64,000 nucleotides of DNA, taken from IMG/VR virus record IMGVR_UViG_3300042934_001067, positions 32,001 through 96,000 of that record, one strand, 5' to 3'. The notes beneath the pieces were generated by a model. It ran no database searches, was not told the origin of the DNA, and was given only the letters and a program-made list of their open reading frames with translations. Source of the DNA: a virus. Position numbers and translations under genes: made by a program. Shown here one piece after another: positions 26,493-47,926 of the stretch (position 1 is the stretch's first letter; every line of letters begins with the position of its first letter).

Positions 26493-26521
26493 ACCCTAAT
26501 GCACATCGATATGCGTGTCTA
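26493..26521 (-). promoter_or_regulatory. Promoter with palindromic spacer, copy 1
   Basis: TAGACA-CGCATATCGATGTGCAT-TAGGGT. Confidence 0.8.
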
Positions 26522-26920
26522 GCCGGTGGCAGCACTCTTCCCGGCCATCACGTCCCACGCCTGGACACCCACCCGCAGACGCACCCGCTGGAACCCCTTC
26601 GCCCCCACCCGGGCCTCGTCCCGCAGCCACGCCGCAGACCGCGCCGTCAACTGAGCCAGCGTCACCACCCCCGACCGCAAAAGGCAGTTCGCCACCCGGT
26701 GCCCCGTCGCGTCGTGCCCCAGCAGGTCATACAGCTCACCCCCGCCGCACCGCCCGCACCAGACCCGCTCCCGCGCCGCAGGCCCGTCAGCCACCAGCGG
26801 CAGCGGACCGGCCGGAAACGCCCGCACCAGAGCAGCGAACGCCTCCACCTCCTCCAGCGGCGCCCCCCGCTCCAGCAGACGGCCCGCCGCCGCCTGCAAC
26901 TCCTCCACCGGCCCGCTCAC
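26519..26920 (-). CDS. RNA polymerase alpha-CTD-like domain protein
   Basis: RVANCLLRSGVVTLAQL.ARS...L.....VGAKG aligns with RpoA CTD pattern R..NCL.R.GI.T..EL...S...L.....G.KS. Confidence 0.7.
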   Translation of the reverse strand: MSGPVEELQAAAGRLLERGAPLEEVEAFAALVRAFPAGPLPLVADGPAARERVWCGRCGGGELYDLLGHDATGHRVANCLLRSGVVTLAQLTARSAAWLRDEARVGAKGFQRVRLRVGVQAWDVMAGKSAATG

Positions 26921-27330
26921 GACCGGCCCTCCGCCGCACGGGCCCGAGCCTCGGCCGCCCAGATCCGGCCCAGCTCCGCCAACTGCTCCTCGTGCGCCAG
27001 AAACATCACGTACGGCAACGGCGGCCGGGTGCGCGGGACGGTGGTGGACAGCCGCATGGACTCCTCGCGGTGCGCGTACACGTCCATGCCGACCCACTCC
27101 TGGTTGCCCGGGATTGCGTAGGCGACACTCCAGTCCGCATGCGGCCGGAACGCGGTCAGCAGCCCTGCGTCCACGGCCGCCAGCACCCACCGGCGAGCTG
27201 TCGCCGGAGACACCCCCCGCTCCTCGGCGATCACGGCCCTCGCCAGGTCGACGGTCACCAGCCGCAGAGGCTTCTCGACGCCCAGCCGCCGGACAGTCTT
27301 GGCGGCCTCGGCCGCCCGCTCGTCGGACAT
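26917..27330 (-). CDS. Hypothetical protein, possible winged HTH
   Basis: GVSPATARRWV..AV..GLL; AAGGAG SD. Confidence 0.65.
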   Translation of the reverse strand: MSDERAAEAAKTVRRLGVEKPLRLVTVDLARAVIAEERGVSPATARRWVLAAVDAGLLTAFRPHADWSVAYAIPGNQEWVGMDVYAHREESMRLSTTVPRTRPPLPYVMFLAHEEQLAELGRIWAAEARARAAEGRS

Positions 27331-27767
27331 CAGGACTCCTTCAGGGTCAGGTCGTGGCGGACGCGTTCGATCTTGTCCATGGCGGCGAGGGCCTCGGGCG
27401 ACGGATTGTGGATCTCCCGCATGCCGTGCACGGCGGCCTCGGCACCCGACGCGAACAGCGGCACGGGCGACTCGTAGTGACAGATGTCCCGGGCCGTCTC
27501 CACGGTGATCTCGCCGGAGGCGACCGCGATGCGCACGGCCGTGCTCTCGTCCATGTCGTGACACCCGGCCCACCCCGCGCACACCCGGGCACGCTCATCG
27601 TCACGGTCGTGTAGGTGGCACTGGAACAGCCGGGGTGTCTGCTGCCAGGTCGGCCCGTCGAACCCGGGCAGCTTCGCATAGTCCTCGGGCGACCAGACCC
27701 CCGACGGAACATCCTGACGGTACGGACACGCCCCGCACGGGCGCGGCGCGGGCGGCAGCGTCGTCAC
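27330..27767 (-). CDS. DUF6283-like Cys-rich protein
   Basis: PRPC..CPYR.DVPSGVW..E.Y.KL..D...FQCH...CAGWAGCH. Confidence 0.75.
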   Translation of the reverse strand: MTTLPPAPRPCGACPYRQDVPSGVWSPEDYAKLPGFDGPTWQQTPRLFQCHLHDRDDERARVCAGWAGCHDMDESTAVRIAVASGEITVETARDICHYESPVPLFASGAEAAVHGMREIHNPSPEALAAMDKIERVRHDLTLKES

Positions 27768-28357
27768 GACTGCTCCCCCACTTCGGTGCGGCGCAGAGCG
27801 CACAGGATGCACTCGCAGGTGTCCGGGTCGTGCCCGGCCGCCTCCGTCGCGTCCACGATGGCATCCCAGGCGGCGGCGACCGCCTCGGAGTTGCCAGGGG
27901 CGTCCGGCCGGGCCCGGTGCTCGGTCTGGGCGTCGCGGTAGCGGGCGGCGAGCCGCTGGGGGGCCTGCGGGTAGTCCACCCGCTCGAACAGCCTCCACCG
28001 GCCGTCCTCCCACTGCTCCACCACGGCGGCCACCTCATCGGTGACACCCGCCTCCGCTCCCCGGCGGCCGAGCGTCACGGCCTCGTACGCCGCGCGCTGC
28101 GACCGGAACGCAGTGGTGGGCAGCACACCCCGGGAGGTGTGCTTGGTGACGCACCACGGCTTGGACGGCTTGTTCATCGGCGTGAACTCCTGATCCTGCT
28201 TCGGGCAGTGCCGGGCATCGAAGTAGGCGGCGGCTCCCCGCCAGTCGGTGGGCATGTCGCCGGACGGCTGCGTCTCCCCGGGGAAGCGCTCCTCGGCGGG
28301 AGCCTGCCTGCGGGAGAGGCCCGCGAGCGCGGCGGCCCGCCGGTCGGCGAGCGTCAC
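27764..28357 (-). CDS. Hypothetical protein
   Basis: Coupled; C-terminal CECILC. Confidence 0.65.
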   Translation of the reverse strand: MTLADRRAAALAGLSRRQAPAEERFPGETQPSGDMPTDWRGAAAYFDARHCPKQDQEFTPMNKPSKPWCVTKHTSRGVLPTTAFRSQRAAYEAVTLGRRGAEAGVTDEVAAVVEQWEDGRWRLFERVDYPQAPQRLAARYRDAQTEHRARPDAPGNSEAVAAAWDAIVDATEAAGHDPDTCECILCALRRTEVGEQS

Positions 28358-28686
28358 TGCTGCTCCTGGGCGTGGAGGGCGGCGCGGGCGGTGATGAGGC
28401 GCAGCCGCGCGCGGATGGCGGCCTCGCGGGTGTTGTGGCCGGTGGCCTTGCGGCCGAGGTTGACGCAGTCGACGGCGAGGGCGGTGAGCGTTTCCATCAC
28501 GGGCGCGGTGGCGTCGAGGGTGAGGAAGTAGCCGATCCGGCGTTCGGTGCGCCGGGCGCGGTGCAGGGCGGCCCGGACGTCGTCCAGGGACGGGGAGGGG
28601 CCGAGTCCGGCGAGGGTGGCGGAGAGCCAGTCGGCGAAGCTGCCGGGGAGCTTCACGGTCGCGGTGGGCGCGGTCGGGGTGCTCAC
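28354..28686 (-). CDS. Hypothetical protein (paralogous to a domain of 31941-33197)
   Basis: V.LP..F..W motif; GTGA overlaps. Confidence 0.7.
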   Translation of the reverse strand: MSTPTAPTATVKLPGSFADWLSATLAGLGPSPSLDDVRAALHRARRTERRIGYFLTLDATAPVMETLTALAVDCVNLGRKATGHNTREAAIRARLRLITARAALHAQEQQ

Positions 28687-28943
28687 TGGTGCTCCCGGGG
28701 CTCGGAGAGAACGACCAGGGTGCGGGTGAGGGCGTAGCCGTCGGTGCGGGGCGTGCCGTCGTCGTGGACGGGGCTGGCGTGGAGGTCGGCGACGAGGACG
28801 ACGCACCCGGCGCCGCTGTCGCGGTCGGCGGCGTCGGCGGTCGCTGCGCCGGGTTCGTACGCGGTGATGCGGATGCGGGCCGGGCCGAGCGGGTAGCGGG
28901 CGCACGTTCGGTAGGTCTGTCCGGCGGCGATGGTGTGGGGCAT
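28683..28943 (-). CDS. Hypothetical protein
   Basis: GAGGAG SD; I.AGQTYR. Confidence 0.7.
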   Translation of the reverse strand: MPHTIAAGQTYRTCARYPLGPARIRITAYEPGAATADAADRDSGAGCVVLVADLHASPVHDDGTPRTDGYALTRTLVVLSEPREHQ

Positions 28944-29024
28944 CAGGTGCTCCTCTTGTGGTCCTCGTGGCGGGTCGAGGGGCCGCACCCCGGCATCGGC
29001 GGGCGGGGCGCGGCCGTGGGCAGG

Positions 29025-29960
29025 CTACTGGTAGGGGGCGGGGCGGTCGGTGGCGGGGGCGTGGCCGTCGTCGAGGATGATGCGCCCGGCGAGGCTGGTG
29101 ACGATCCATGCGGTCTGGTCGGTGGGCCAGCCGTCGGTGCTCCAGCGGCCTGCGCTGTCCTTGTGTGCGGCGGCGGCGATGCCTTCCAGCTCCCGGGCGC
29201 GGCGGCGGGCGGTGGCCTGGTCGAGGCCTGGGCCACGGGCGGGCAGGCTGGCGAGGTACGCGGTGGAGGCACGCTCCTGGGGGTCGGGGTCCGGCTCGGG
29301 GATGTTGGCGGGCATCCGCCGGTACGTGCCGTCAAGGCCGAGCACCAGGGCCTCACCGCCGTGCTCGGCGACCAGGTAGCCGTGCTCGGTGCGCTCCTGC
29401 GGGCCCTCGGCCCATGCGACGTACGTGCCGAGGGGCGTGGCGGGCTGCTCCTGGGCGTCGTCGGTCTCGTCATCGTCGTGGATGCCGGGGGCGTTGTCGG
29501 CCGGAGCGGTGTACCGGGCGGCGGGCGACTCGAAGGGGGGCGGGATGTCGGCGGGGTCGATCGACTCGCCGTAGCCGGGCGAGTCACCGAGCGGGCGGTA
29601 CGGGGCGGGGTCGGTCGCGGGGCGCTCCTGGTCGGCGGTCGAGGGTGGTTCGGCTTCGAACGCGATGCGGTCGAGGGGGTAGACGGTCCATCCGGCGGCG
29701 GTGAGCTGCTCGCGGGCGGTGTCGACTGCGGCGGGGTCGTCGGTGATCTGGACGGTGGAGACGTACAGGCGACCGTGAGAGACCTGGGCGCGCACGGTGG
29801 GGGTGATCTCCAGGTATCGGCCGTCGGCGGTCGGCTGCACGCCGAGGAGGGGCGCGGCGGCGGTGATCAGGGTGCGAGTGCGCTCCTGGCGCTCCTCCTC
29901 GGTGAGGGCGCGCCAGGCGTCGAGGTCGGGCCAGTGGGCGGGGCGGCGAGGGGCGGGCAT
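29025..29960 (-). CDS. Hypothetical mosaic protein
   Basis: AGGAG SD, strong C3 bias. Confidence 0.7.
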   Translation of the reverse strand: MPAPRRPAHWPDLDAWRALTEEERQERTRTLITAAAPLLGVQPTADGRYLEITPTVRAQVSHGRLYVSTVQITDDPAAVDTAREQLTAAGWTVYPLDRIAFEAEPPSTADQERPATDPAPYRPLGDSPGYGESIDPADIPPPFESPAARYTAPADNAPGIHDDDETDDAQEQPATPLGTYVAWAEGPQERTEHGYLVAEHGGEALVLGLDGTYRRMPANIPEPDPDPQERASTAYLASLPARGPGLDQATARRRARELEGIAAAAHKDSAGRWSTDGWPTDQTAWIVTSLAGRIILDDGHAPATDRPAPYQ

Positions 29961-30001
29961 GTCGGGCTTCTCCTGGGCATGTGGCGAGCTGTCAGGGGCG
30001 G

Positions 30002-30040
30002 GGAGCGCCCGGCGGTCGGCGGGGGACTGCCGGGCGCTCC
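30002..30040 (-). repeat. Intergenic GGAGCGCCC...GGGCGCTCC hairpin
   Basis: Same arms recur at 30916-30955 and partly at 31583-31624. Confidence 0.65.
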
Positions 30041-30048
30041 TGCGGGCG

Positions 30049-30468
30049 TCAGGCGGCCGGGATGGTGTGCTCGGCGAGCCGGGCGACGTACTGCCGTCCG
30101 GTCTCGCGCATGGTGTTGGCGTGCGGGGTGACGGGAACGTCCGCCTTGCAGCCGGGGCAGGGGACGCGCTCGCCCTCGGTGTACGGGCCGGGGTCGGTGA
30201 CGTCGTCGGGGGCGGTGTGCGCCCAGCCGTGCGGGGCGTACCAGCGGGACACGGTGCCGCCGCTCTTGGGGCAGGGTGCGGCGGGCGCGGTGCTGATCAT
30301 GTAACCCTCCAGCGCCCACTGCTGCGCGGCGGCCATGATCGCTTCCGCTGCCGTGTAGGGGTCGGTGGTGTGGTCGTGGGCGTTCAGCAGGTTGTCGATG
30401 ACAACGGCGCGCAGGCGCTCGCGGGATGCGGCGCGGGCGTCGGCCTCGGTGTCGGTGATCGTGCTCAT
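30049..30468 (-). CDS. Hypothetical Zn-ribbon protein
   Basis: CP.SG...VPCPGC...LAEH. Confidence 0.7.
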   Translation of the reverse strand: MSTITDTEADARAASRERLRAVVIDNLLNAHDHTTDPYTAAEAIMAAAQQWALEGYMISTAPAAPCPKSGGTVSRWYAPHGWAHTAPDDVTDPGPYTEGERVPCPGCKADVPVTPHANTMRETGRQYVARLAEHTIPAA

Positions 30469-30507
30469 GTCGGGCGCTCCTGGGGTCTGTGACGGATCGG
30501 TGGGCGG

Positions 30508-30873
30508 TCAGTCGTCGGGCCAGCCGTCCCAGGCGGGGCGGTTGAGCTGGACGGAGAAGGTGTACGCGCTCTCGTTGGCGCTGACCTGGCGGACGATCGG
30601 GGCGTATTCCAGGGCGGCGAGGAACTCACAGACGGTGAGGCTGGCGTGCGTGCTGTCGTCGGCGGTGTGGTCCAGGGGCACGAGGGGCTCGCCGGGGTGC
30701 CGGGGCCACTGGAAGGCGCCGAGCACCTCGGCGCGCACCCATGTTCCCGGGCGCTTGGGCATGGTCGGCTGGGCGCGGACGCGGATGACGTCGGCGGTGT
30801 CGGGGGCCAGGGCGCGCAGCGTGTCGACTTCGGGGGTGCGGCGGGGCTGGTCGGGGTGGGCGTGCGGTCCCAT
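30508..30873 (-). CDS. Hypothetical protein
   Basis: GAGGAG SD. Confidence 0.7.
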   Translation of the reverse strand: MGPHAHPDQPRRTPEVDTLRALAPDTADVIRVRAQPTMPKRPGTWVRAEVLGAFQWPRHPGEPLVPLDHTADDSTHASLTVCEFLAALEYAPIVRQVSANESAYTFSVQLNRPAWDGWPDD

Positions 30874-30915
30874 GGGCGGCTGCTCCTCGGGTCTTTGGCG
30901 GGCGGTGAGGGGGTC

Positions 30916-30955
30916 GGAGCGCCCCGGGGGCCGGGCTGGCCGTGCGGGGCGCTCC
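30916..30955 (-). repeat. Intergenic GGAGCGCCCC...GGGGCGCTCC hairpin
   Basis: 11-bp perfect arms. Confidence 0.65.
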
Positions 30956-30964
30956 TGGGGGCGT

Positions 30965-31159
30965 CTAGCGGCCGAGGGGGGCGCCGTGGTGGAGGCGGGC
31001 GGCGGCCCCGGCGCGGTGGGCGCCGATGGACTCGCCGTAGGTGCCGACTCCCCCGGCGGGGTACAGGCGGCGCTGGACGGGGCCGACGCGGCGGGGGTCG
31101 TATCCGGCGGCGTAGGGGCGGAGGGTGTGTGCGCGGGCGGCCTTGATGGTCTGTCGCAT
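30965..31159 (-). CDS. Small basic protein
   Basis: AGGAG SD. Confidence 0.6.
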   Translation of the reverse strand: MRQTIKAARAHTLRPYAAGYDPRRVGPVQRRLYPAGGVGTYGESIGAHRAGAAARLHHGAPLGR

Positions 31160-31197
31160 GGCGGTGTGCTCCTGGGGTGTGGTCGGTGGGTGGGTGT

Positions 31198-31545
31198 TCA
31201 GGCGCTGTCGCGCCACTCGTGGACGGTGACGACGTTGACGGGGCGGCCGGTGTAGCCGAGCCAGTTAGCGGCGAGTCGCGCGGCCATGGCTTCGGTGGAG
31301 CGGGTGATCGTGTGGGTGTCGGCGGTGTCGTAGTCGTTGACCGCGTCGAGGGTGGCGCGGCGGGTGCCGCCGGTGATGTGCCACTGGGGCTCGCGGTCGC
31401 GGGCGGGGGCGCGGTCGGCCGGGGTGATGACGTTCATGAGTCCGGTGAGGCGGGTGCCGTCGCGGCGGGTCCAGACGATCTCGACGCGGACGGGCGCGGG
31501 GGTGGTGTCGGTGGCAGGGGCGGGCTGGCCGAACGTGACGGTCAC
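31198..31545 (-). CDS. Hypothetical protein (paralogous to C-terminus of 31941-33197)
   Basis: WT......G...A.AA...GYTG.PV. Confidence 0.7.
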   Translation of the reverse strand: MTVTFGQPAPATDTTPAPVRVEIVWTRRDGTRLTGLMNVITPADRAPARDREPQWHITGGTRRATLDAVNDYDTADTHTITRSTEAMAARLAANWLGYTGRPVNVVTVHEWRDSA

Positions 31546-31633
31546 CGGGGCTCCAGTGGGTCTAGGGCGGGCTGGCGGGCGGTCGGTGGGCAGCCGGGGC
31601 CGGTGGGGTCGGCCCCGGCGCTCCTGGGGGTGT

Positions 31634-31849
31634 TCAGGCGGGGGTGGCGGTGGGGCGCTGCTCCTCGTGGTGGTGGCACGGGGTGCGGTCGTCGTTGTGG
31701 TGCCAGGTGCCGGACGCGTGGGGGATGTCGGGGCGGCTGTAGGTGACGTCGCGGGCGGCGCGGCAGATGCCCCGGGCTCCGTTGGCGGGGCGGGCGGGGG
31801 TTTCGGGGAAGCTGCGGGGCTCGGGCATGTGGGTGAGGGGCTGGGCCAT
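31634..31849 (-). CDS. Small hypothetical protein
   Basis: AGGAG SD. Confidence 0.55.
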   Translation of the reverse strand: MAQPLTHMPEPRSFPETPARPANGARGICRAARDVTYSRPDIPHASGTWHHNDDRTPCHHHEEQRPTATPA

Positions 31850-31940
31850 GGCGGGCGCTCCTGGAGGCTGTGTGCGGGCGTGTGGCGGGTTATGGGGGCC
31901 CGGCCGGGGTGACGGTCCGGCCGGGCCCGTGCGGGGCGGT

Positions 31941-33197
31941 CTAGCGGAGGGTGAGTCGCTGGCGGCCGGTCTGCTCGATGGTGACGGGGCCGGTGTATCC
32001 GGCGTGGCGGGCGCAGTCGGCGGCAAGGGCGTCGAGTCCCCAGGCGCGGGCGATGCGGCGGGCGGGGCCGACGTCGGCGGTGGGGTCGTGGGCGATGTGG
32101 TCGGCGAGGGCGCCCCGGGCGGGGGTGGCGTGCTCGATGTGGGTGATCTTGTAGGTGGTGCCGTTGGGGAAGCTCACGACGCCGTTGTGGTGGCCGCGCA
32201 CGGTCTTGGTCCAGTCGACGCGGGCGGTGACGGGGGCGGGGCCCTCGGGGGTGTCGGCGGGGGTGGTGACTTCATGGGAGTCGGCCCACACCAGGGCCGG
32301 GCGGCCGGGGACGCGGATGCCGATGCGCTGGGTGCGGATGCCCTGGCGGGCGTGGGCGGTGGTGGCAGCGCGCAGGGGCCCGGCGGTTTCGACGATGCCG
32401 GTGTACTCCTGGCCGCGCACGGTGGCGGTGACTGCTGCGCCGACGGGGACGGTGATGTCGCGGGGAGCGGGGGTGTCGTCGTCCTGGGGGGCCGTGGCGG
32501 GCTCCTGGGGCCCCTGCTGCGCCTTGTGGGCGGTGAGGGCGGTGCGCAGCTTGGTGAGGGCGGTGCGGGCGCGCTGGGCGGTGGTCTGGGCGGCGTCGAG
32601 TTCACGGGCGGCGGCGGGGTCGCGGTCGGCCTCGTCGGCGTTGGAGTCGGCGAGGGTCTCGGCGTACTCGGTGATCATCTTCAGGACCGTGGGGCTGCTG
32701 GTGGTGATCTTGGCGGAGTGGCCGTGGGCGGTCTTGCGGAGGGTGGCGGCTTCGTAGGCGAGGCGCAGGGCCTTGCAGTCGGGGTCGTTGTCGTCCTGGC
32801 CCTCGACGAGGTTGGTGCCGTCGAACCATGCGCAGAAGTCGGCGGGGAGGGTGACGGACACGGTGGGGGTGGCGGGCACGGTGGGCTCCTCGTGGGCGGG
32901 GGCGGGCTTGCGGGTGATGTAGACCATGGCGCAGCCGTGGTAGTCGTCGGGCAGTGCGGAGTAGTCGGAGCACACGGGGACGTACTCGAAGGTGTAGCGG
33001 TCGCCGAGGGCGCTGGTGATCTTGTTGAGGGCGGCGCGGTCGTCGTCGTCGCTGAAGTGGTTCAGGGTGATCACGGCGGGGGCGTCGAAGGTGATGACGT
33101 CCCATCCGTTGGCGGCGCTGCGGTGCTGCTTGCCGAGGATGCGGCCGACCATGCGGCTTACGTCGCTCTTGCGGAGGGGGGCGGCGGTGGTGGTCAT
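31941..33197 (-). CDS. Mosaic multidomain hypothetical protein
   Basis: GAGGAG SD; first gene after promoter copy 2. Confidence 0.75.
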   Translation of the reverse strand: MTTTAAPLRKSDVSRMVGRILGKQHRSAANGWDVITFDAPAVITLNHFSDDDDRAALNKITSALGDRYTFEYVPVCSDYSALPDDYHGCAMVYITRKPAPAHEEPTVPATPTVSVTLPADFCAWFDGTNLVEGQDDNDPDCKALRLAYEAATLRKTAHGHSAKITTSSPTVLKMITEYAETLADSNADEADRDPAAARELDAAQTTAQRARTALTKLRTALTAHKAQQGPQEPATAPQDDDTPAPRDITVPVGAAVTATVRGQEYTGIVETAGPLRAATTAHARQGIRTQRIGIRVPGRPALVWADSHEVTTPADTPEGPAPVTARVDWTKTVRGHHNGVVSFPNGTTYKITHIEHATPARGALADHIAHDPTADVGPARRIARAWGLDALAADCARHAGYTGPVTIEQTGRQRLTLR

Positions 33198-33236: not shown

Positions 33237-33266
33237 AGCCTAATGCACATCGATATGCATGGGGGC
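33237..33266 (-). promoter_or_regulatory. Promoter with palindromic spacer, copy 2 (poor -35)
   Basis: GCCCCC-ATGCATATCGATGTGCAT-TAGGCT. Confidence 0.75.
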
Positions 33267-33370: not shown

Positions 33371-35077
33371 CTACGCCACCCGGTCACCCGCCGGGCGCAC
33401 CGTGATCATGGTCCCGTCGGTCAACGTCACCCGCAACGCCCCCCGCGCGTGCCGGTGCACCGTCTGCCCGGTGCTCAGAGCCTGGGCCACGAACACCGCC
33501 ACGGCCTCAGCCGCGATCACGTCACCCCCCGCACGCTCCACCCCGGCCGCCGTGGTGACGCTCGCCGACCACACGGCCACCTCGCCCGCCTCACTCATCG
33601 CCCGATCCACCACAGGGCGCAGCGCCTCAACCCGCTCACCCGACCGGTTACACCCCACCAGCGCCCACACGCCCCCCTGAGCAGCCCCCCGGCCCTCCTG
33701 CGGCTCCACGGCCACACGCGGCGCTGCGAGGCGCTCCACGCCCCCCTGAGACGCCTCCACGGACGGCACCCGCCCCCGCCGCGCATCGAACATCCGAAAG
33801 TACTGCTGCGCCCGCCACAACGCCTCAGCCGGACCATTCCCCGACGCCACATCCTCACGGGTGACACCCCCGTACTGCTGCCCCTCCTGGGGCTCCTCGG
33901 CCGCCACAGGCGCGCTCACGGGCTCCTCGGCCGCCTCCAGGTTGCTGGACGCCGACCAGAAGCACACGACCACACGGCCACCCTCCTCGGCCACCCACGC
34001 CACACGCCAATACGCGTTGTCCCACCCCAGCACACGCGCACCCCCCACCACGAGCCGCGCCCCACGCTCCACACGGTTCACCCGCACCGTGGCAGCAGCC
34101 ATCCCGTCCGCGTCGGCCACCTCCCGGGAAAACTCCCTCAGCGTGTCCACGCCCCCACCCTGCCGCTCCTCCTCCAGCACAGCAGCGCAGTACCCGCACA
34201 GGTGACCGCTCTCCGTCTCACGGTGAGGCAAGGAGTCATCCCCCACAGCGTCACAACGGATACACAGGGGCTCCAGATGCGGGGCACGCACGTCAACCGG
34301 AAGAGCATCGCCATGGCGCGCACCGTCCGGCACGAACGTCACCCGCTCCACCCCGTCCGCGTGAACGAACCGATCCGTGATCTTCCCCTTACCAGCCAGG
34401 CACCGCGCACGCACCCCCGGCACCGCCCACACCGCCGGACGCTCCTTCTCCTGCTGCGCCCCCTTGGCCGCGTCAGCAATGGCGCGCCCCATGCGCTTCA
34501 CGTCCCCCTCAGAGACCTGGAACACGTCACGGGCGATTCGCTCCCCCTGCTGCTCCCTGTCCAGCTTGGCCAGGTACGCCCGACCCCGGTCGTTGATCAC
34601 CAGGTACGACAACCACGGGCCCGCATCCGCCGTGTCCGCCATGTCCCGGCGCAGAATGCCGTCCTGAGTACGGTCGTTGTGGTCGACCATGGTCATGCGC
34701 CCCTTGGGATCGGCCGCGCCCTTGCGGAGCAGCTCCACCATGGCGGGCGTCGGCTTGCGGGTGATCTCGACCGCCGGGCGCTCCTCCTGCTGCTGCGCCT
34801 TGCGGGCCGCGCGCTTCTGGGCGTGCGCGGCAACGGCCTCACGCGTCCAGTGCTCGTCGCCCAGGCGGAAGTAAGCGATGCGGTTGCGGACGAACCCGTC
34901 GGCGGCGACGTACCCGGCGCGCTCCCGGTCCCAGCGCCACGCGCTCTTCAGCGCCTCCATACGGTCGAACGCTGCGCCGACCGTGTCAAAGGTCTCGAAC
35001 TGGGGGCCGTCGGCGTCGGGGGTGATGAAGAGCTGTTCACCCTGGGCGTTGTAGGCGCGGAGTTCGGTGCGGTCCAT
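33371..35077 (-). CDS. Mosaic multidomain hypothetical protein
   Basis: GAGGAG SD; contains wHTH-like and CxxC segments; G/T-ending codons in the 3' two-thirds. Confidence 0.75.
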   Translation of the reverse strand: MDRTELRAYNAQGEQLFITPDADGPQFETFDTVGAAFDRMEALKSAWRWDRERAGYVAADGFVRNRIAYFRLGDEHWTREAVAAHAQKRAARKAQQQEERPAVEITRKPTPAMVELLRKGAADPKGRMTMVDHNDRTQDGILRRDMADTADAGPWLSYLVINDRGRAYLAKLDREQQGERIARDVFQVSEGDVKRMGRAIADAAKGAQQEKERPAVWAVPGVRARCLAGKGKITDRFVHADGVERVTFVPDGARHGDALPVDVRAPHLEPLCIRCDAVGDDSLPHRETESGHLCGYCAAVLEEERQGGGVDTLREFSREVADADGMAAATVRVNRVERGARLVVGGARVLGWDNAYWRVAWVAEEGGRVVVCFWSASSNLEAAEEPVSAPVAAEEPQEGQQYGGVTREDVASGNGPAEALWRAQQYFRMFDARRGRVPSVEASQGGVERLAAPRVAVEPQEGRGAAQGGVWALVGCNRSGERVEALRPVVDRAMSEAGEVAVWSASVTTAAGVERAGGDVIAAEAVAVFVAQALSTGQTVHRHARGALRVTLTDGTMITVRPAGDRVA

Positions 35078-38225: not shown

Positions 38226-38234
38226 GGGTGGCTC

Positions 38235-40101: not shown

Positions 40102-40131
40102 AAGCTAATGCACATCGATATGCATTGTCTA
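40102..40131 (-). promoter_or_regulatory. Promoter with palindromic spacer, copy 4
   Basis: TAGACA-ATGCATATCGATGTGCAT-TAGCTT. Confidence 0.85.
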
Positions 40132-40194: not shown

Positions 40195-41379
40195 TCAGTC
40201 GGCGGGCATCGTGGTCTTCCACCCCTCGACGATGCGCACGCGGCGGCCGTACTTGCGGCGCAGCATGTCTCGCAGCGACGCGAGACCGGTACCGTAGCCG
40301 ATCGCGGGGGCGCCGTTCACGGCGTATTCGTAGGTCCAGCGCCACGCCGGGCCGGGGCGGGCGACTTCCGGGTACAGCCTGGAGCGCGTGATCAGAACGG
40401 CGGGCGTGCCGTCGGCGGCCGGGCCGGGCGGCGCCGGGCACGTTCCCGTGGAGTGCCGAGTGACCCACTCACCCTCGACGTGGACCCGCTCTCCCTTCTC
40501 GGCCGCCACCAGGACGCCGCAGCGCACACACTCCCCCTCGAACCTGTTCCCCTGGGCCGGGCGCCCCGCCTGCGGCTGCTGGGGCTCCTCGGCGGCCGGG
40601 CGCTCCTGGCACTCACCGGGCTTGTGCTGAACGGTCCAGCGGCCGTCAACACGCTCGCGCTCACCCTCGCCCGCTTCGACCAGGGCGCCGCAGTTGCGGC
40701 ACTCGCCCGCGTAGCGGTTGGCGGGGAGCGGCTTGGGTGCGGGGGCGGGCTTGGGCTCCTCGGCCTTGACCGGACGGGGCTTGCGCACGGGTGGGGCCGG
40801 GGGCTCCTCGCCTTCCAGCCATGCGCCCTTGTAACGGCGGGCGATCGCGCGGCGTGCTTCCTCACGGGCGGCCTGCGCCTCGGGGCCGCCGACGGCGTGA
40901 GCGCGAATCGTGTAGATGGTGTGGAACGCGCCTTTGGCCCAGTAGGCGGGGTGGTCGGACGACTCCGACGTCCAGGACTTGCCGTCCTCGAACGTGATCG
41001 CAGCGCGCACGCACGGAACGTCGACGTACTTGTCGTCCTCGACGCCGCGCCCGGTGAACTCCGTCACCTCCACCGTGGCCACCGTGCGCCATGCTGCCTT
41101 GTAGTCCCACGGCTTGTTGCCGCTCACTCCGCCGTGCGCCTGCGACATGATGCGCATGCCGGGCTTGATGTCCCGGACGGCCACGGTCGCGGCGGAGTCG
41201 GCGAGCGCCTTTTCGTACGCTTCGAACGCGGTGCGCCCCCGGCGGGAAAGGCGGACCTTCTTGCCGGAGCAGCTCCAGCACACGTTGCCGTCACGCTCGT
41301 TGTAGGAGTACCGGCCGGTACCGCCGCAACGGCCGCAGGGCTCTTCATCGAAATGGATCTTGACGATGGTTACGGTCAC
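40195..41379 (-). CDS. Multi-zinc-finger protein
   Basis: CGRCGGTG / CWSCSG plus tandem NR..GEC..CG.LV....GER...G.W...H...C repeats. Confidence 0.75.
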   Translation of the reverse strand: MTVTIVKIHFDEEPCGRCGGTGRYSYNERDGNVCWSCSGKKVRLSRRGRTAFEAYEKALADSAATVAVRDIKPGMRIMSQAHGGVSGNKPWDYKAAWRTVATVEVTEFTGRGVEDDKYVDVPCVRAAITFEDGKSWTSESSDHPAYWAKGAFHTIYTIRAHAVGGPEAQAAREEARRAIARRYKGAWLEGEEPPAPPVRKPRPVKAEEPKPAPAPKPLPANRYAGECRNCGALVEAGEGERERVDGRWTVQHKPGECQERPAAEEPQQPQAGRPAQGNRFEGECVRCGVLVAAEKGERVHVEGEWVTRHSTGTCPAPPGPAADGTPAVLITRSRLYPEVARPGPAWRWTYEYAVNGAPAIGYGTGLASLRDMLRRKYGRRVRIVEGWKTTMPAD

Positions 41380-41417: not shown

Positions 41418-41447
41418 AGACTAATGCATATGGATGTGCATTGAAAG
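41418..41447 (-). promoter_or_regulatory. Promoter with palindromic spacer, copy 5
   Basis: CTTTCA-ATGCACATCCATATGCAT-TAGTCT. Confidence 0.8.
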
Positions 41448-41513: not shown

Positions 41514-41519
41514 GCACCC

Positions 41520-43250
41520 CTACGCCACCAGGGACACGGTTACCGTTTCGCCGTCGTGGCGCAGCACCAGGGACTCATCACTGCGGGTGTAGCGGGCGCC
41601 CGCCCGCACCATGCCTGCCACCATGCCCACCACGTAATCGCGGTCCTCGGTGCTCACGCTGTTGTCCATCCCCCGCACCACCCGCACCGCGAGCCGGTCA
41701 CGGTGCGGCGTGACGTCGTCGGCGAGCGCCATGGCCGCACCCTCGGACGCGTTCAGGGTGCTCACGGGCGCGGGCGCGTCGGCGGGCTGCTGCGGCTCCT
41801 CGGCGGGGGCGGCGGCGCGGTCGGGCTTGCTGTCCTCGACCCAGTAGCCGTGCTCGGTACCGTCCGAACCGCACCCCTCGCACCCCTCGCCCTCACTGTC
41901 GATGATGTGGCGGCCCACCAGGACGTCAACGGCGTCACGCGCGTCCGACTCGTCGTCGTAGGAGTCGAACGCCCCCTCACGCTCAAAGCGGATCTTGTAG
42001 CGGTGGTTCGTGCATCCGTCGCTGTCGCCCTCGTGCTCCTCACACTCCTCGGCGCCACTCTCGTCGGCGGGCGCCGGGCGCCGTGGCACGTAGCGACGCT
42101 CGCACGTCTGGCCGTCGTGCGGGTCGGTGTCGCTCATGACGATCACGCCATCCGGGCCCTTGCGGAAGTCGAGTCCCTTGGCAATGCGCGACTTCAGCAC
42201 ACGGCACACCCATTCGGCGTCCCGGGTGTAGCGGGGCTCAGGCTCCCCGTTGCTGAACACGTCGTACCACTCCGCGTCAACGGCGTACGCGGCGCCGCCC
42301 TCGATGCTCTCGCCGGTGTTCGTGATGCGGTGCGCGCCCGACGGCATGCCCTTGTCGGTGGGGGTCTCCTCGGCGTCGTCGTCGGACAGCGCGGCGCCGC
42401 ACATGCTCAGCTCAGTGCACGCCTGCCCGGACTCGGCGCCGCACCCCTCGCACGGCTGCCTCTCGGCGGCCGGGCTCCCGTTCAGTTCTCCCAGGTAGGA
42501 AATTGTCACCTCGGGCTTCGGCGTGCGGTGCGTACGGCGCCAGTGCGCCGCAGCCTCACGCACGGCCTCCTCGCTGTCCGCTGCGAGGTACCTTTCACCG
42601 GCCGCGTAGCCGTAGTGCGCGGGCCACGTGGCATGCACCCAGTGGCCCGCGCCGCCCTCCTCGGCCCGCTGCAAGGCGCCGTCGATGGCCGCGTGAATGC
42701 GGGTTTGCTCCTGCGCCCAGCCGTTGGGGAAAATGGGGCGCTGCGGGACGAGCCAGATGGGGCACGGCTCGCCCGCGCCGTCGAAACCGGGGTCGGTGAC
42801 GCCCGCACCGTCGATCCGGATGAGACCGCTGTCCCCGACGGTAACGGCGAAACCCTTGCGACGGGCGGCGGCGATGCGGAGCCGGACCGACGCGGCGTTC
42901 TCGTCGCACAGCTTGCGGGCCCAGCCGAAACCGTTGGCACCCGTGTGGCAGGCGTACATAACCGACTCGACGTCGACCGCCGGGGGCTCCTCGGTCGGCT
43001 TCTCGCGGACCAGGGCGACCGCGTCGGCGGTGAGGTAGGTACGGGTGACGGTGCGCACCGGCTTCCCCGTCTCGTAGTCCCGGACGGTGACGACTTCCAC
43101 CCGCTCGGCCATGCTGCGCTTCTTCAGCGCCTCGACGGTGCGGGGGTTGGCGGAGCCGGGGCGGATCTCGTAGCGCCCCTCGTCGTCGGGACCGGCCTCG
43201 ACGGCGGCGCGGATGGTGCGGATCATCGGCTCACTGAGCTTTGCGGCCAT
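41520..43250 (-). CDS. Mosaic multidomain hypothetical protein
   Basis: AAGGAG SD; RTVEAL.KR wHTH-like N-terminus; repeated CEGCG. Confidence 0.75.
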   Translation of the reverse strand: MAAKLSEPMIRTIRAAVEAGPDDEGRYEIRPGSANPRTVEALKKRSMAERVEVVTVRDYETGKPVRTVTRTYLTADAVALVREKPTEEPPAVDVESVMYACHTGANGFGWARKLCDENAASVRLRIAAARRKGFAVTVGDSGLIRIDGAGVTDPGFDGAGEPCPIWLVPQRPIFPNGWAQEQTRIHAAIDGALQRAEEGGAGHWVHATWPAHYGYAAGERYLAADSEEAVREAAAHWRRTHRTPKPEVTISYLGELNGSPAAERQPCEGCGAESGQACTELSMCGAALSDDDAEETPTDKGMPSGAHRITNTGESIEGGAAYAVDAEWYDVFSNGEPEPRYTRDAEWVCRVLKSRIAKGLDFRKGPDGVIVMSDTDPHDGQTCERRYVPRRPAPADESGAEECEEHEGDSDGCTNHRYKIRFEREGAFDSYDDESDARDAVDVLVGRHIIDSEGEGCEGCGSDGTEHGYWVEDSKPDRAAAPAEEPQQPADAPAPVSTLNASEGAAMALADDVTPHRDRLAVRVVRGMDNSVSTEDRDYVVGMVAGMVRAGARYTRSDESLVLRHDGETVTVSLVA

Positions 43251-43293: not shown

Positions 43294-43323
43294 AACGTAA
43301 TGCATATCGATGTGCATTGGAAG
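43294..43323 (-). promoter_or_regulatory. Promoter with palindromic spacer, copy 6
   Basis: CTTCCA-ATGCACATCGATATGCAT-TACGTT. Confidence 0.8.
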
Positions 43324-43508: not shown

Positions 43509-43766
43509 TCACCTCCTCGGCGGGTGGAGGATGACGCCGGGCGCGTGGCCGGGCATCGGTCCGTCGTCGGGGTTGGGCGCCTGCTCGCACTCGGTGCCGT
43601 TGCGTCCCACGGTCCAGGCGTCGCCGTCGGCGGCCAGCTCCATGGCGTCGCCGCAGTGCTGGCACACGCTCCGCTTCGGGTAGCCGTCGGGGTCGGGCTC
43701 CGGCGGCGCCGGGGCGGGGCCCTGCACGGTGGGCAGTGCGGACGGGGGCGGGATGAACGGAATCAT
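43509..43766 (-). CDS. Small Zn-binding protein
   Basis: GAGGAGG SD; CQHCG...C...H. Confidence 0.6.
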   Translation of the reverse strand: MIPFIPPPSALPTVQGPAPAPPEPDPDGYPKRSVCQHCGDAMELAADGDAWTVGRNGTECEQAPNPDDGPMPGHAPGVILHPPRR

Positions 43767-43788
43767 CGGACAGCCTCCTCGCGGGAGT

Positions 43789-44793
43789 TCAGTGCAGGAC
43801 CAGGCTGCGCATTCCGTAGCCGCGCAGGGGATAGCGGTCCTCGAACAGCTCGGACGTGTGGTCGCATCCGGGGCAGGAGTCGCGGCCGGTGCCGTAGTCA
43901 TGGGCGCACCGCGTGCCGTACAGGGCGCGCGCCATGGCCTTGACGGCGACGTCTGCGCGGTGCCCGGTCCAGACGGCGGGGTCGGGGGGCGTGATCCATC
44001 CGGCGTCCGGGGCGGGCGTGACGGTGACGCGGTAACGGCCGTTGTCGTCGAGGTCGAGGCGGACGTCACGGCTGAAGTGGTGGAAGATCCACGCGACCGG
44101 CGGCCGGTACTCATCCCGGGGGCCGTCGGCCTCGATCACGGCCAGGCGGAACGGGGCTCCGGGGGTCTGGTCGCACAGGTCGGCCCAGACGGCGTCAGCG
44201 TGCCCCAGAGCGTTCACCGCGTCGTGGTCGAGGGGGAACGGCGTGCCAGGGGTGGTGTGTTCAGGCTCGGGCGCCCAGGACGGCCGGAACTCCGGCGCGA
44301 AGTAGATGCGGGCGCCGTCCTGCTCGGCGTAGCCGCCCAGCTTGCTGAACACCTGGAACGGGATGTTGACCCAGGTCGAACCCGTGTGGTTGGCGTCGTG
44401 GAACTGCTTGGGCGAGGTGTGCGGAAGGCGAACCCGCTCGATGTACGGGCGCCCCATGAGGGTGACGCCTGCGATCCAGCCGGACGCCTTACCCTGGGCT
44501 CGTCCGGCCAGGCTGAGGATGATTTTCAGGTACTCATCCGGGATGATCAGCCGCTCACGCTCGCGGAGCGCCTCGGCGGCGGCGCGGCCGTCCTCGGTCA
44601 GGAAGTAGTGTCCGCGCTCCTCGTCGGCCGTGGCCAGGCCCTGAGCGACCAGCCGCGCGCCGTCGGGGGCGTGCACGTTGCCGCTCTTGACCTCAAGGGC
44701 GGCCAGAAGGGCCGAGTCCTCCAGGGCGTCAGCGTCCGTGAACGGCGGCTCCATCTCGGCGTCGGTCGGCGCCTGAGCGTCGGTGGTGTCCAT
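43789..44793 (-). CDS. Mosaic hypothetical protein with winged-helix-like N-terminus
   Basis: RLV..GLA....YFLTEDG; C-terminal CAH...CPGC. Confidence 0.75.
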   Translation of the reverse strand: MDTTDAQAPTDAEMEPPFTDADALEDSALLAALEVKSGNVHAPDGARLVAQGLATADEERGHYFLTEDGRAAAEALRERERLIIPDEYLKIILSLAGRAQGKASGWIAGVTLMGRPYIERVRLPHTSPKQFHDANHTGSTWVNIPFQVFSKLGGYAEQDGARIYFAPEFRPSWAPEPEHTTPGTPFPLDHDAVNALGHADAVWADLCDQTPGAPFRLAVIEADGPRDEYRPPVAWIFHHFSRDVRLDLDDNGRYRVTVTPAPDAGWITPPDPAVWTGHRADVAVKAMARALYGTRCAHDYGTGRDSCPGCDHTSELFEDRYPLRGYGMRSLVLH

Positions 44794-44827
44794 GCGGCGG
44801 GTCCCCTCGTGGTGGTGGGTCGGGTGG

Positions 44828-44897
44828 TGGAGAGCGCCCCGGGCCGGAGTCGAACCGGACCCGAACCGCCACGCCCCTCGCGGGGGCGGGCCGGGGC
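44828..44897 (-). ncRNA. tRNA-like element lacking anticodon arm, copy A
   Basis: GCCCCGG/CCGGGGC acceptor stem, 6-bp hairpin, T-arm CCGG-TTCGACT-CCGG, 3' GCTCTCCA. Confidence 0.65.
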
Positions 44898-44904
44898 TGT
44901 GGTG

Positions 44905-45651
44905 CTACTCGGCGAGCAGCTCGGCGCGGACGTACGCCCAGTTGATCGCGTCGAAGCCTTCGGAGGCGTCGCGGCCGTCGGCGGCCTCGCTCAAACTGTC
45001 CCGAATCAGGGCGATGGTGTGGCGGTCGTCGGCCGAACGGTGGGCGCGGGGGCCGAAGACCACCGGGCGGAGGTGGTCGCGCAACTCGTCCTCACCGGCG
45101 CGCGCAGCGTTGCGGGCGTCCTCAATGAACGTTCCGTCGTTGGTGATCCACACGGCAACCGAGTGCGTGGCGAAGTTCTGGCCGTCGTACGGGCCGCCCT
45201 CGACGCGGCGCGGCGTAGCGGCCTGGTGGCGGTTGGCCAGGCGGAAGGCGGCGCGACGGACCTCAATGGGGAGGGACTCGTCGTTGATCTTGGCCCTGTT
45301 GGCCTCGACCTTTTCAGGGGTGGAGAGAATCGGCCGCTCGACGCACAGCAGGTCACCGCACCGGAGCAGGTCCGTGGAGCCGTCGGCGTAGAACACCTCG
45401 GCCGTGCCGGGGTCGGCGTCCTTGGCCCACTCAACGCGGATGATGTCCTTGAACTTGTCCAGGTGGCCGTGAGCGTCCTGGCCCCGTCCGCTCTCGGGCT
45501 TGCGGGCAGTACCGGCCGCAGTGCGGGTGATCATGTGGGGGATCCTGTCGGCGTCCACGCCCTTGAGGCCGTCGATACGCAGGTGTCCGGGGGCGGTGTT
45601 GCCGCTGGCGGCAACGGCCTCGGCGGGGGTCAGGTAGTCGAAGATGCTCAC
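44905..45651 (-). CDS. Hypothetical two-domain protein
   Basis: GAGGAG SD; C-terminal Y.G.N..T..V..WI.ND...INW pattern. Confidence 0.75.
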   Translation of the reverse strand: MSIFDYLTPAEAVAASGNTAPGHLRIDGLKGVDADRIPHMITRTAAGTARKPESGRGQDAHGHLDKFKDIIRVEWAKDADPGTAEVFYADGSTDLLRCGDLLCVERPILSTPEKVEANRAKINDESLPIEVRRAAFRLANRHQAATPRRVEGGPYDGQNFATHSVAVWITNDGTFIEDARNAARAGEDELRDHLRPVVFGPRAHRSADDRHTIALIRDSLSEAADGRDASEGFDAINWAYVRAELLAE

Positions 45652-45678
45652 GGGTGTTCTCCTCGGTAGGCGGGATGG

Positions 45679-45746
45679 TGGGGAGCGCCCCGGTCGGGCA
45701 TCGAACCCGGCTCGGGCCGCCCCGCCCGTGTGGGCGGGGCCGGGGC
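45679..45746 (-). ncRNA. tRNA-like element lacking anticodon arm, copy B
   Basis: Same acceptor stem; T-arm CGGG-TTCGATG-CCCG; stems covary with copy A. Confidence 0.65.
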
Positions 45747-45752
45747 CGTCTG

Positions 45753-46379
45753 TCAGTCGTCGTGGTCGGCCATGGCGTACTCGTCGAAGCGGTCGGCGCC
45801 GAACAGCGTGCGCAGGCCCTCGGCCATCTTCACGTTTTCGCTGTAGGTCTCGCGGGGCATCCAGTTGGCGGGGTCCGTGGCGAAGTCGCTCGCCCAGTCC
45901 TCGAAGTTGTCGGCGTAGTAGGCGGTCGCCGACTGGCGGACCAGCATGCCCACGGTCTCGACCAGCTCCGGCGCGTCGCCCTCCTCGCCGCCGTGCTTGA
46001 CGGTCTGGGTGTAGGTGCGGCCGTCGTAGGCAAGCGTGACGCGGTACTCGCGGTGCACCCAGCCCTCGGCGTCGGCGCCCATGGCGATCAGCTCGGAGGT
46101 AAGGGTGACACCGTCGCGGCGCAGCAGCAGGGACAGGGGGAGGTCGGAAACCTTGCCGCCGATCTGACCGTCGGCCGGGTACTGCTCGCGGGTCCACTCG
46201 TCGCAGGCGGCCTCGAACGCCTCCTGGGTGCGCTCGATGGCGGGTCCCTGGGTCCTGCCGTCGTCGCTGATGTGCCAGACGTTGACGACCGCGCCGGTGT
46301 TGGTGCTGATGTACTCGCCGCCGTCCCAGGTGAAGGTGAGGCCGGTGCGGTACTGCGGGGTGTAGATGAAGGCGGGCAT
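45753..46379 (-). CDS. Hypothetical protein
   Basis: GAGGAG SD. Confidence 0.75.
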   Translation of the reverse strand: MPAFIYTPQYRTGLTFTWDGGEYISTNTGAVVNVWHISDDGRTQGPAIERTQEAFEAACDEWTREQYPADGQIGGKVSDLPLSLLLRRDGVTLTSELIAMGADAEGWVHREYRVTLAYDGRTYTQTVKHGGEEGDAPELVETVGMLVRQSATAYYADNFEDWASDFATDPANWMPRETYSENVKMAEGLRTLFGADRFDEYAMADHDD

Positions 46380-46421
46380 GCTGGTCTCCTCGGTCGTTCT
46401 TCCCTGGCGGGCTCAAGAAGG

Positions 46422-46451
46422 AATCTAATGCATATCGATGTGCATTGTCTA
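46422..46451 (-). promoter_or_regulatory. Promoter with palindromic spacer, copy 7
   Basis: TAGACA-ATGCACATCGATATGCAT-TAGATT. Confidence 0.85.
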
Positions 46452-46514
46452 GCCGGTTCCGGGATCCCTTCCCGGACGGGCGCGCCCCAGCCGTCGGGGC
46501 GCGCCCAGGGTGGC

Positions 46515-47861
46515 CTACTGGGGCCGGTCGTGCTTGCGGAACTTGTAGGCGGAGGTGACGGAAATCCTCTGGCCGCACTCGGGGCAGGTGCCGCGCTTGC
46601 TGTACAGGCGGCGCTCGCCCTCCGTCATGTGCTTGTACGCGTCCGTGCGCGAGCCGGGGCACTCCGTCTCCGGCGCCTGCCGCTCGGTCCATTCCGTGGG
46701 CGCGTCGGGGTAGCACTTCGTGCACATGATTGCCTCGGTGCCCGCCGTGGCGTCCCTGATCACCCGCTGGTACGCCTCGCGCCATTCCATGCCGGAGACC
46801 TCGGGAAGCCAGCGCAGTGGCGTACTGGGGCCGATGCTCGGGCAGTTACGGCCGGTGTGAACGTGCCCGCCGTCGGACAGGCACAGGTGCATACGCGACC
46901 AGCCGCCCCGGCGGCGGAACTCGCCGTCGAGGATGGCGAGGGGGCCGTCCATGACGATGCGCAGTTCCATGCGCAGGGAGTCGAGGAGACGGACGGCCGC
47001 GCGGAGCTGCTTCGTGTAGGCCCCGGGCGCCGTGAGCCCCTCGCGCACACGGGTCATCTTGTCGGGGAGGTAGCCACTGGCCAGGTGCTCGCGGGCGGTG
47101 CGCTCGGCCTTGTCGAACGACGTTGGCCAAACCTGACGATAGCCTCGGCCGTACCGCTCTCTCGTCTTGCGCCAGAGGAGCGCGCGATACACGCCGTCGG
47201 TGGCCTTCTCTGTCTCGGCGGCGAGCCGGGACAGTTCGTCGGCAAGGACGGCGTTGTACCGGTCGACCTCGACCGCCGTGAGGTTCGTGAGCTGCTCGGG
47301 CCGGACAGCAAGCGTTTCGGCGAGGGTGGGCACGACGGCCGGGGCGGGCTGCCCGGGCGGCAGGATGCGGAAGCTGTGACCGTCCTCGGAGGTGAGGATC
47401 TCACCATTGGTCATGGCCTCCATGCTGGCCTTCATGATGTCGTAGTGGCCGCCGAGCCCGTGCCTTCCCAGGATGGACGACGCGAAGTACTCCGCCTGAT
47501 GGCCCGTCGTGGCCTCGTCGACGGTGGCCCCGTGGCCGACGGTGACCCAGTCGAGACCCTGGGGCGGGCGGACCTGAGCACGGTAGTCGGTGGCCGGGGC
47601 CTCGACACCCAGGCGGCTCCTGCGCTCCTCGGGGACGAGGGCCATCAGGGTCGTCTTCTTCGTGCGGCGCTCGTACTCCTCGCCCGTCCTGGTGTTCACC
47701 TCGTAGATCTTGAGGAACTTTGGCGACGCGTTTTCAATCTTCACGATCTGGTAGACGCGGCCGTAGTTGTACATGAGCTGATCGCCGGGCTTCAGGTCCT
47801 TGGCCGGGACGGCCGGGACCCGGCCGACGGCCTGGAGGTGGATCGTCTGGGACTCCTGCAT
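46515..47861 (-). CDS. Mosaic protein with C-terminal Zn-binding domains
   Basis: GGWSR...GGHVH...C...LP.VSG...CTKCYP.AP; CPGS...CPECG...RKH. Confidence 0.75.
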   Translation of the reverse strand: MQESQTIHLQAVGRVPAVPAKDLKPGDQLMYNYGRVYQIVKIENASPKFLKIYEVNTRTGEEYERRTKKTTLMALVPEERRSRLGVEAPATDYRAQVRPPQGLDWVTVGHGATVDEATTGHQAEYFASSILGRHGLGGHYDIMKASMEAMTNGEILTSEDGHSFRILPPGQPAPAVVPTLAETLAVRPEQLTNLTAVEVDRYNAVLADELSRLAAETEKATDGVYRALLWRKTRERYGRGYRQVWPTSFDKAERTAREHLASGYLPDKMTRVREGLTAPGAYTKQLRAAVRLLDSLRMELRIVMDGPLAILDGEFRRRGGWSRMHLCLSDGGHVHTGRNCPSIGPSTPLRWLPEVSGMEWREAYQRVIRDATAGTEAIMCTKCYPDAPTEWTERQAPETECPGSRTDAYKHMTEGERRLYSKRGTCPECGQRISVTSAYKFRKHDRPQ

Positions 47862-47896
47862 GGTCGTTCTCTCCTCCGTGGCGGGATGACGCGATC

Positions 47897-47926
47897 AACC
47901 TAATGCACATGGATATGCATTGTCTA
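47897..47926 (-). promoter_or_regulatory. Promoter with palindromic spacer, copy 8
   Basis: TAGACA-ATGCATATCCATGTGCAT-TAGGTT. Confidence 0.85.

Follow-up and report, generated by a model that had tools for sequence, protein, structure and literature searches.

Promoters with a spacer-filling near-palindrome in a Streptomyces phage-plasmid and their counterparts in related elements

The temperate Streptomyces phage phiC31 carries many inverted repeats of approximately 17 bp at its early promoters, which are bound by the c repressor, and these promoters are not known to be of the host-consensus type. For phage P1, 22 operators of 17 bp for the C1 repressor have been described, which are dispersed at the promoters of separate operons (PMC8546580). 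The genomes of the cluster A mycobacteriophages hold up to approximately 30 copies of a repressor site (that of gp71 in phage L5), with both the consensus and the repressor differing between heteroimmune lineages (PMC6550527, PMC9283540). A further type of repeated element, the PeSL of the T4-type phages, combines a hairpin with an early promoter at the borders of variable genes and serves as an exchange point between close relatives (PMC2839356, PMC4122927). The present study concerns a set of promoters sharing a repeated near-palindrome in a stretch of 64,000 nucleotides (referred to as the window), which represents bases 32001–96000 of the 156,276-bp virus record IMGVR_UViG_3300042934_001067 and has a G+C content of 70%. 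Judged by its relatives, the element is a myophage-like phage-plasmid of Streptomyces. Its sister element is a 156,949-bp contig of Streptomyces sp. MH60, with approximately 88% DNA identity where the two can be aligned, and a megablast search of the region against phage records gave no match.

A repeated near-palindrome at nine promoters

An earlier note on this stretch had described eight promoters, each with the same 18-bp operator between its −35 and −10 hexamers. The eight sites of the type ATGCAYATSSATRTGCAT were found at the positions reported, with zero or one mismatch (Table 1), and a search with ATGCAYATSGATRTGCAT allowing up to three mismatches returned exactly these eight in the window and nothing further. 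In shuffled versions of the window 0.02 sites are expected, and none of 100 shuffles reached eight. The count of promoters has to be raised to nine, with the additional site located at genome position 103602 (corresponding to window position 71602, 7.6 kb past the window end) and consisting of CTTGCA, the palindrome and TAGGGT. When the 156-kb genome was scanned with a weight matrix derived from all nine, these scored 29–36 bits and all else 10.7 bits or less; there were no copies beyond the nine promoter sites, and thus nothing approaching a similar frequency inside genes. The 8-base half-site was likewise not found in this genome outside the nine sites.

A check of the motif on the full replicon and the host chromosome, as had been proposed, gave the nine phage sites and none on the rest of the MH60 genome: allowing up to two mismatches, the motif was present in the whole 8.1-Mb genome on the phage contig only. 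The palindrome could conceivably be the site of a host global regulator which the phage exploits, as it bears a loose resemblance to TGCAT-armed actinobacterial boxes such as the ARG boxes. However, its spacing is unlike that of the ARG boxes, and with zero copies on the MH60 host chromosome and unrelated palindromes in use by related phages of the same host genus, such an origin is most improbable.

All of the sites are intergenic and lie ahead of leftward genes, as had been stated, the gene calls being supported by third-position G+C; every gene called on this basis in the regulon stretch is leftward. The start codons follow 41–85 nt past the palindrome. Read on the minus strand, the −10 and −35 hexamers of the eight window promoters are those previously listed (Table 1). 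The −10 hexamer conforms to TAnnnT at nine of nine sites and to TAGnnT at eight, while the resemblance of the −35 hexamer to TTGACA is good in five promoters (TAGACA in four and CTTGCA in one) and weak in the others (CTTCCA in two, CTTTCA and GCCCCC). Spacer length is 18 bp in eight promoters and either 17 or 18 bp in one. A promoter scan with the consensus of E. coli passed promoter 2 only. The pattern T[AT]GAC[AG]-N16-19-TAnnnT had five matches in 156 kb, four of them being these promoters, and the nine promoters are essentially the only host-consensus promoters of the phage. Downstream of the −10 hexamer there is a conserved leader, often with the sequence CCCGCC(A/G)AGAAC, followed by a GGAG ribosome site and the start codon. 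GC-rich hairpins of −24 to −48 kcal/mol were predicted upstream of most promoters, which suggests that each unit is insulated.

The description of the spacer as an 18-bp palindromic operator stands in that the dyad fills the spacer; it does not in that the dyad is a near-palindrome and not a perfect one. All nine sites of this genome have ATGCAC as one half and ATGCAT as the other, and both orientations with respect to the promoter occur. In MH60 there are three symmetric ATGCAT/ATGCAT sites and no site with two ATGCAC halves. A reading of the palindrome as a restriction site was dropped, since neither ATGCAT nor ATCGAT is required (the halves and the centre vary) and depletion elsewhere is only mild.

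Two further sequence elements were observed around the promoters. Most of them have, 10–30 nt upstream of the −35 hexamer, an element resembling GGAAGATCTTCC / GGATTCCCGRAAC that is loosely conserved (window 40135–40150, 41450–41465, 43327–43345, 46455–46475 and 35155–35170). It recurs at 54100–54120, in the control region that separates the WhiJ-like gene from the HATPase gene (both discussed below). A CCGCC(A/G) box (for example at window 47870–47885 and 46395–46410) is present 7–45 nt upstream of 31–38% of start codons in the whole genome, compared to 12–17% of random windows. It also occurs in relatives, with the exception of a clade carrying a CTCCAA-type palindrome, which has CCGACTCC instead, and it resembles a signal of the leader or of translation initiation.

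The geometry of the promoters is of the HrdB type, as had been proposed, with a −35/−10 frame, spacers of 17–19 bp when relatives are included, and a −10 hexamer of the form TAnnnT throughout. In Streptomyces the −10 consensus is TAGRRT, which the hexamers found here fit, and promoters with such spacers and −10 hexamers should fire with the host polymerase alone, no activator being needed. A dimer filling the spacer should then repress them. We consider, with moderate confidence and on the strength of the sequence comparisons, that the element is a temperate Streptomyces phage-plasmid, that these promoters drive its early genes and that they are repressed by a phage-encoded dimeric protein. 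The host RNA polymerase with its principal sigma factor (HrdB type) would read the TTGACA-like −35 and the TAGnnT −10, and the 18 bp between the hexamers would form a single operator for a sequence-specific dimer which, once bound, would cover the face needed by sigma and the core polymerase. All nine units would in this way be silenced together and released together.

The earlier suggestion of either a repressor or a MerR-type activator thus leans to the former, spacers of 17–19 bp making the latter unlikely. An activator site, at which a phage dimer sitting in the spacer or touching the polymerase would turn on a delayed-early or middle class of promoters, would suit a dyad centred in the spacer, but the twisting by MerR-type proteins involves spacers of 19–20 bp, and no MerR-family match was found among approximately 80 proteins scanned. 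The weakness of four of the nine −35 hexamers, and of nearly all those in the A0642 relative, could call for activation, although the best promoters are near consensus. The design also persists in a clade without the partition ATPase, which may be lytic; if these are the only host-type promoters of the phage, on the other hand, it is hard to see how the activator itself would first be made. Activation is accordingly regarded as unlikely.

Conservation and concerted replacement of the dyad in relatives

All nine sites have orthologs in MH60. Compared without gaps, the −35 and −10 hexamers of the two elements each have an identity of 0.96, and the palindromes one of 0.97. The leader has 0.86, while on the upstream side identity drops to 0.73 over 30 nt and to 0.57 beyond these. 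The palindromes differ at five of 162 positions, all central or inner (6, 8, 10 and 13), with four of the five at positions that are degenerate in the consensus (Y, S or R). Each promoter retains its own variant of the −10 and −35 hexamers in MH60, and homogenisation among copies is therefore not the explanation for the identity of the 18-mers.

This pattern also bears on whether the promoters are mobile promoter-terminator cassettes, resembling the PeSL and kept alike by duplication and recombination, with a palindrome that has no binding partner. Several downstream genes have been replaced between the element and MH60 while the promoter modules stay, so that hairpin and promoter do border variable genes, and the same pattern has been described in T4-type phages (PMC2839356, PMC4122927). 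The identity peak lies, however, exactly on the 30-bp core and not on the hairpins, every copy keeps its private hexamers, six unrelated sequences all retain the symmetry of a dyad and each genome has one type only, an isolated distant copy included. Cassettes lacking an operator are improbable on these grounds, and a cassette role and an operator role can coexist.

One of the other relatives, pRLB1-9.1, is a circular plasmid of 154 kb from Streptomyces sp. RLB1-9, for which ParA, an HK97-fold capsid protein, baseplate J, a DnaB-like helicase and DNA polymerase III alpha are annotated. Lineages with different palindromes are approximately equidistant from each other, with a median protein identity of 67–73%. 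At least twelve relatives, in which the number of sites in a genome ranges from 6 to 20 or more, share the frame of a −35 hexamer, a 16–18-bp near-palindrome filling the spacer and TAGnnT, and at least six types of palindrome were found within it. Besides type T1, ATGCAYATSSATRTGCAT (nine sites each in this genome and MH60), these are T2, GGCAAC-N4-GTTGCC (at least 15 in pRLB1-9.1; also in two metagenomic contigs); T3, CGCACT-N4-AGTGCG (17 in the NPDC021080 contig and 10 in the A0642 contig), with a variant T3b, CGCACT-N4-AGTACG, in the cg35 plasmid (ten sites, of which eight are of the AGTACG type, one is AGTGCG and one is degenerate); T4, ACCYWGATATCWRGGT (six and one dubious match in one IMG/VR genome); T5, GCGCATCT-N2-AGATGCGC (four in 20 kb of one contig); and T6, CTCCAA-N6-TTGGAG (three genomes, one with 20). 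The asymmetric CGCACT...AGTACG of cg35 is mostly fixed in its orientation. In pRLB1-9.1, NPDC021080 and cg35 the isolated ninth unit also bears the type of its own lineage. It should also be noted that in the CTCCAA-type genome IMGVR_UViG_3300044691_000566 (21–66 kb), most of the 20 promoters have a TGAC-N3/4-GTCA dyad directly after the −10 hexamer. A locus on S. cucumeris scaffold14 was dropped because its promoter style is different; this more distant element, which does share a few of the regulon genes, has a GGCCTAGGCC palindrome after its −10 (TAGACT/TACAAT).

That many scattered dyads have changed in concert while the host-type frame around them stayed constant is the pattern predicted for a trans-acting, lineage-specific dimeric DNA-binding protein, and from the sequences it is hard to find another explanation for it. 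The proposal that one sequence-specific dimeric regulator serves all of the promoters is strengthened in this way, the spacer palindromes being replaced together in relatives and the motif being absent from the MH60 chromosome.

Lineage-specific promoter sequences are also typical of phage-encoded transcription factors, and the element does encode a protein with sigma region 4 only, so that the spacer might simply belong to a promoter recognised by a polymerase that the phage has modified, or by a sigma-like factor of its own, with no separate operator. However, no sigma region 2 was found in the element (the control being positive in 10 of 14 genomes), and the AAGGGGTG boxes that were seen represent a different, late motif. 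As dyad symmetry has no role in sigma recognition and the −35 and −10 hexamers remain host-like in all lineages, very little weight is given to this explanation.

Putative regulated units and candidate regulators

The regulon had been estimated to span approximately 22 kb, but it probably extends over approximately 17–48 kb of the window together with the separate ninth unit. The nine units comprise approximately 40 genes (see Table 1 for those in the window), nearly all of which are orphans, with many swapped between close relatives. Searches of the regulated proteins with Pfam, PHROGs and PADLOC came back almost empty, and a protein atlas search with the 576-aa protein of unit 3 returned nothing usable. 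In unit 5, the C-terminal domain encoded at 36806–37594 (minus strand) resembles rifampin ADP-ribosyltransferase (Arr-ms, E 8e-7), and tRNA-like T-arm sequences (GGTTCGA.. motifs) are present in the gene gaps of unit 2 (window 44800–45750) and in the same places in pRLB1-9.1. In one relative a PNKP-phosphatase-like gene and a gene with a TerD domain were found in the regulon units, as would suit functions in the early phase or in host take-over, and the regulated genes are presumably early or lytic ones.

Table 1. Promoters, regulated units and candidate regulator genes, in window coordinates
Feature	Position	Strand	Description
Promoter 1	47897..47926	−	−35 TAGACA 47921–47926; near-palindrome 47903–47920; −10 TAGGTT 47897–47902; core identical in MH60 ortholog
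Promoter 2	46422..46451	−	TAGACA; palindrome 46428–46445; TAGATT
Promoter 3	43294..43323	−	CTTCCA; palindrome 43300–43317; TACGTT
Promoter 4	41418..41447	−	CTTTCA; palindrome 41424–41441 (centre CC); TAGTCT
Promoter 5	40102..40131	−	TAGACA; palindrome 40108–40125; TAGCTT
Promoter 6	35122..35151	−	CTTCCA; palindrome 35128–35145; TAGGGT
Promoter 7	33237..33266	−	poor −35 GCCCCC; palindrome 33243–33260; TAGGCT
Promoter 8	26493..26522	−	TAGACA with 17-bp spacer (or CTAGAC with 18); palindrome 26499–26516, one mismatch; TAGGGT
Unit 1, first gene	46515..47861	−	448 aa, phrog_2433
Unit 2	43509..46379	−	four genes with tRNA-like elements between
Unit 3	41520..43250	−	576-aa orphan protein
Unit 4	40195..41379	−	394-aa protein, zinc-ribbon-like stretch at N terminus
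Unit 5	35479..40061	−	seven genes, including one with Arr-like ADP-ribosyltransferase domain (36806–37594)
Unit 6	33371..35077	−	568-aa orphan protein
Unit 7	27330..33197	−	418-aa protein, then approximately nine small genes
Unit 8	17035..26413	−	run of small genes, extent inferred; no further promoter of the class before late-type promoters
Candidate regulator	54230..55096	+	WhiJ-like XRE helix-turn-helix and DUF5753, 288 aa; Pfam hits
DUF397 partner gene	55074..55319	+	BldB-like
HATPase_c_2 partner gene	53445..54008	−	AbaA/anti-sigma-like; divergent from XRE gene; fifth for type tracking

For the regulator, 58 gene families present in six genomes were compared for how closely they track operator type, with the similarity among the three CGCACT-type genomes set against that to the others. 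The WhiJ-like gene, which adjoins the early region together with its DUF397 and HATPase_c_2 partners, ranked first of the 58 (+9.2 points), with neighbors of it second and fifth. Its predicted recognition helix reads SKPTLYRY in T1, S(Q/R)PVVYRQ in T2, S(E/G)A(A/T)IYR in T3, AKPTVMRQ in T4 and SVPAIYRH in T5. On these comparisons the WhiJ-like XRE protein is the best candidate for the regulator, though a weak one which is put forward tentatively. Its own control region contains no operator and is conserved across types, and the only WhiJ site mapped, that of WhiJ9, consists of three direct repeats far upstream and is apparently activating (PMC10294661).

Other genes were considered and rejected. 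For the 391-aa two-winged-helix protein (genome 140639–141814) there was no correspondence with operator type (delta −0.4). The gene is a solitary one preceded by 1 kb of non-coding sequence and may encode a replication initiator, although no iterons were found. Neither the 204-aa double-XRE protein (genome 120992–121606), whose recognition helices are nearly invariant, nor the EspR-like repressor of the protease cassette has helices which follow type. No DNA-binding signature was present in the ninth-unit protein or the product of the 'head' gene (49162–50259), and no DNA-binding matches were obtained for the small proteins held in common only with the T5 relative (59041–59379). No helix-turn-helix gene adjoins the regulon in the CTCCAA-type relative.

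Other possible regulatory sites were also detected near these genes. A LexA-type SOS box, TCGAAC-N4-ATTCGA, at window 56168–56183 abuts a TACGGT −10 (minus strand) and lies approximately 290 nt upstream of the gene for a membrane-anchored protein (55404–55874, minus strand); in six of six phage-plasmid relatives examined there is one such box within approximately 2 kb of the WhiJ-like gene. A 20-bp dyad, GGGTTGCG-TTAG-CGCAACCC, with perfect 8-bp arms was found at window 50389–50408, between the leftward 'head' gene and a divergent rightward five-gene operon (50457–53461). As the dyad also occurs in A0642, which has another type of spacer operator, a second regulator probably binds there.

Proposed role and comparison with known systems

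Several observations weigh against repression by a phage-encoded dimer. Some of the −35 hexamers are weak (CTTCCA, GCCCCC), leaving room for activation. No operator copy or half-site was found at any of the candidate regulator genes, giving no sign of autoregulation. The CTCCAA-type clade has the same design yet lacks both a WhiJ-like homolog and ParA, which suggests that the regulator may be an unrecognised protein and that its role may not be lysogeny.

A role of the proposed repressor in the choice between lysis and lysogeny is plausible. The elements occur as plasmids in isolates and would need to silence their early genes in the carrier state, which fits a role like that of P1 C1. The occurrence of the same design in the ParA-less clade indicates that it may also, or instead, serve early-gene shut-off during lytic growth, and this alternative is equally plausible. 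With a palindrome of its own, and presumably a regulator specificity of its own, each lineage would form a separate immunity group. A wider reading, which is less likely than not, is that exchangeable 16–18-bp spacer dyads lie at the heart of every early promoter in a whole family of actinobacterial myophages and phage-plasmids of approximately 150 kb. The partner would then be either the WhiJ/BldB/AbaA-like trio acting as an immunity switch or a DNA-binding protein which is universal, evolves fast, has a fold not yet recognised and functions in relatives without a plasmid lifestyle as well.

The nine promoters, their one operator and at least six specificity variants provide a testable map of the early regulon for an unstudied family of large Streptomyces phage-plasmids, as well as a natural experiment in the joint change of a regulator and its operator set, with 9 to 20 or more scattered sites involved. 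As soon as the regulators are known, a panel of orthogonal repressible promoters would be ready for Streptomyces engineering. If the WhiJ-like protein is indeed the partner, a large regulator family would gain a defined DNA target and a biological role; should the trio prove to be the immunity switch, this puzzling Streptomyces family would gain its first operator and a clear job.

Three features of multi-operator immunity are found together here, namely a site which the phage has in many copies and the host does not have at all, its location inside promoters, and a distinct consensus in relatives. P1 is likewise a phage-plasmid myophage with one repressor site repeated over its genome at the promoters of separate operons, but its operators are asymmetric and variously placed, whereas the near-palindrome described here always exactly fills the −35/−10 spacer. 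The cluster A phages, also actinobacterial, share the single repeated site that differs by lineage. Their stoperators differ in being 13-bp asymmetric sites that are bound by a monomer, lie mostly outside promoters, point in the direction of transcription and stop elongation; every copy in this element is a dyad inside a promoter, with none elsewhere. The comparison with phiC31 is by description only, and many inverted-repeat copies at early promoters are common to both, while the host-consensus promoter frame is a feature of the present element. As in the PeSL, hairpin and early promoter border genes that vary between close relatives (this element and MH60), but the PeSLs have no operator and here the operator-like dyad is the best-conserved part. 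The candidate module has all three parts of the WhiJ/BldB/AbaA modules of Streptomyces (XRE-DUF5753, DUF397 and HATPase_c_2; PMC10294661), from which it would differ in its target, the mapped WhiJ9 site consisting of direct repeats and the phage copy being linked to a dyad by inference. By analogy with P1 C1 and cluster A, the repressor logic would be an already familiar one in an unusually strict form. What is distinctive is that the dyad makes up the entire spacer and occurs at promoters only, that the promoter frame is that of the host consensus, and that natural specificity variants exist in such breadth.

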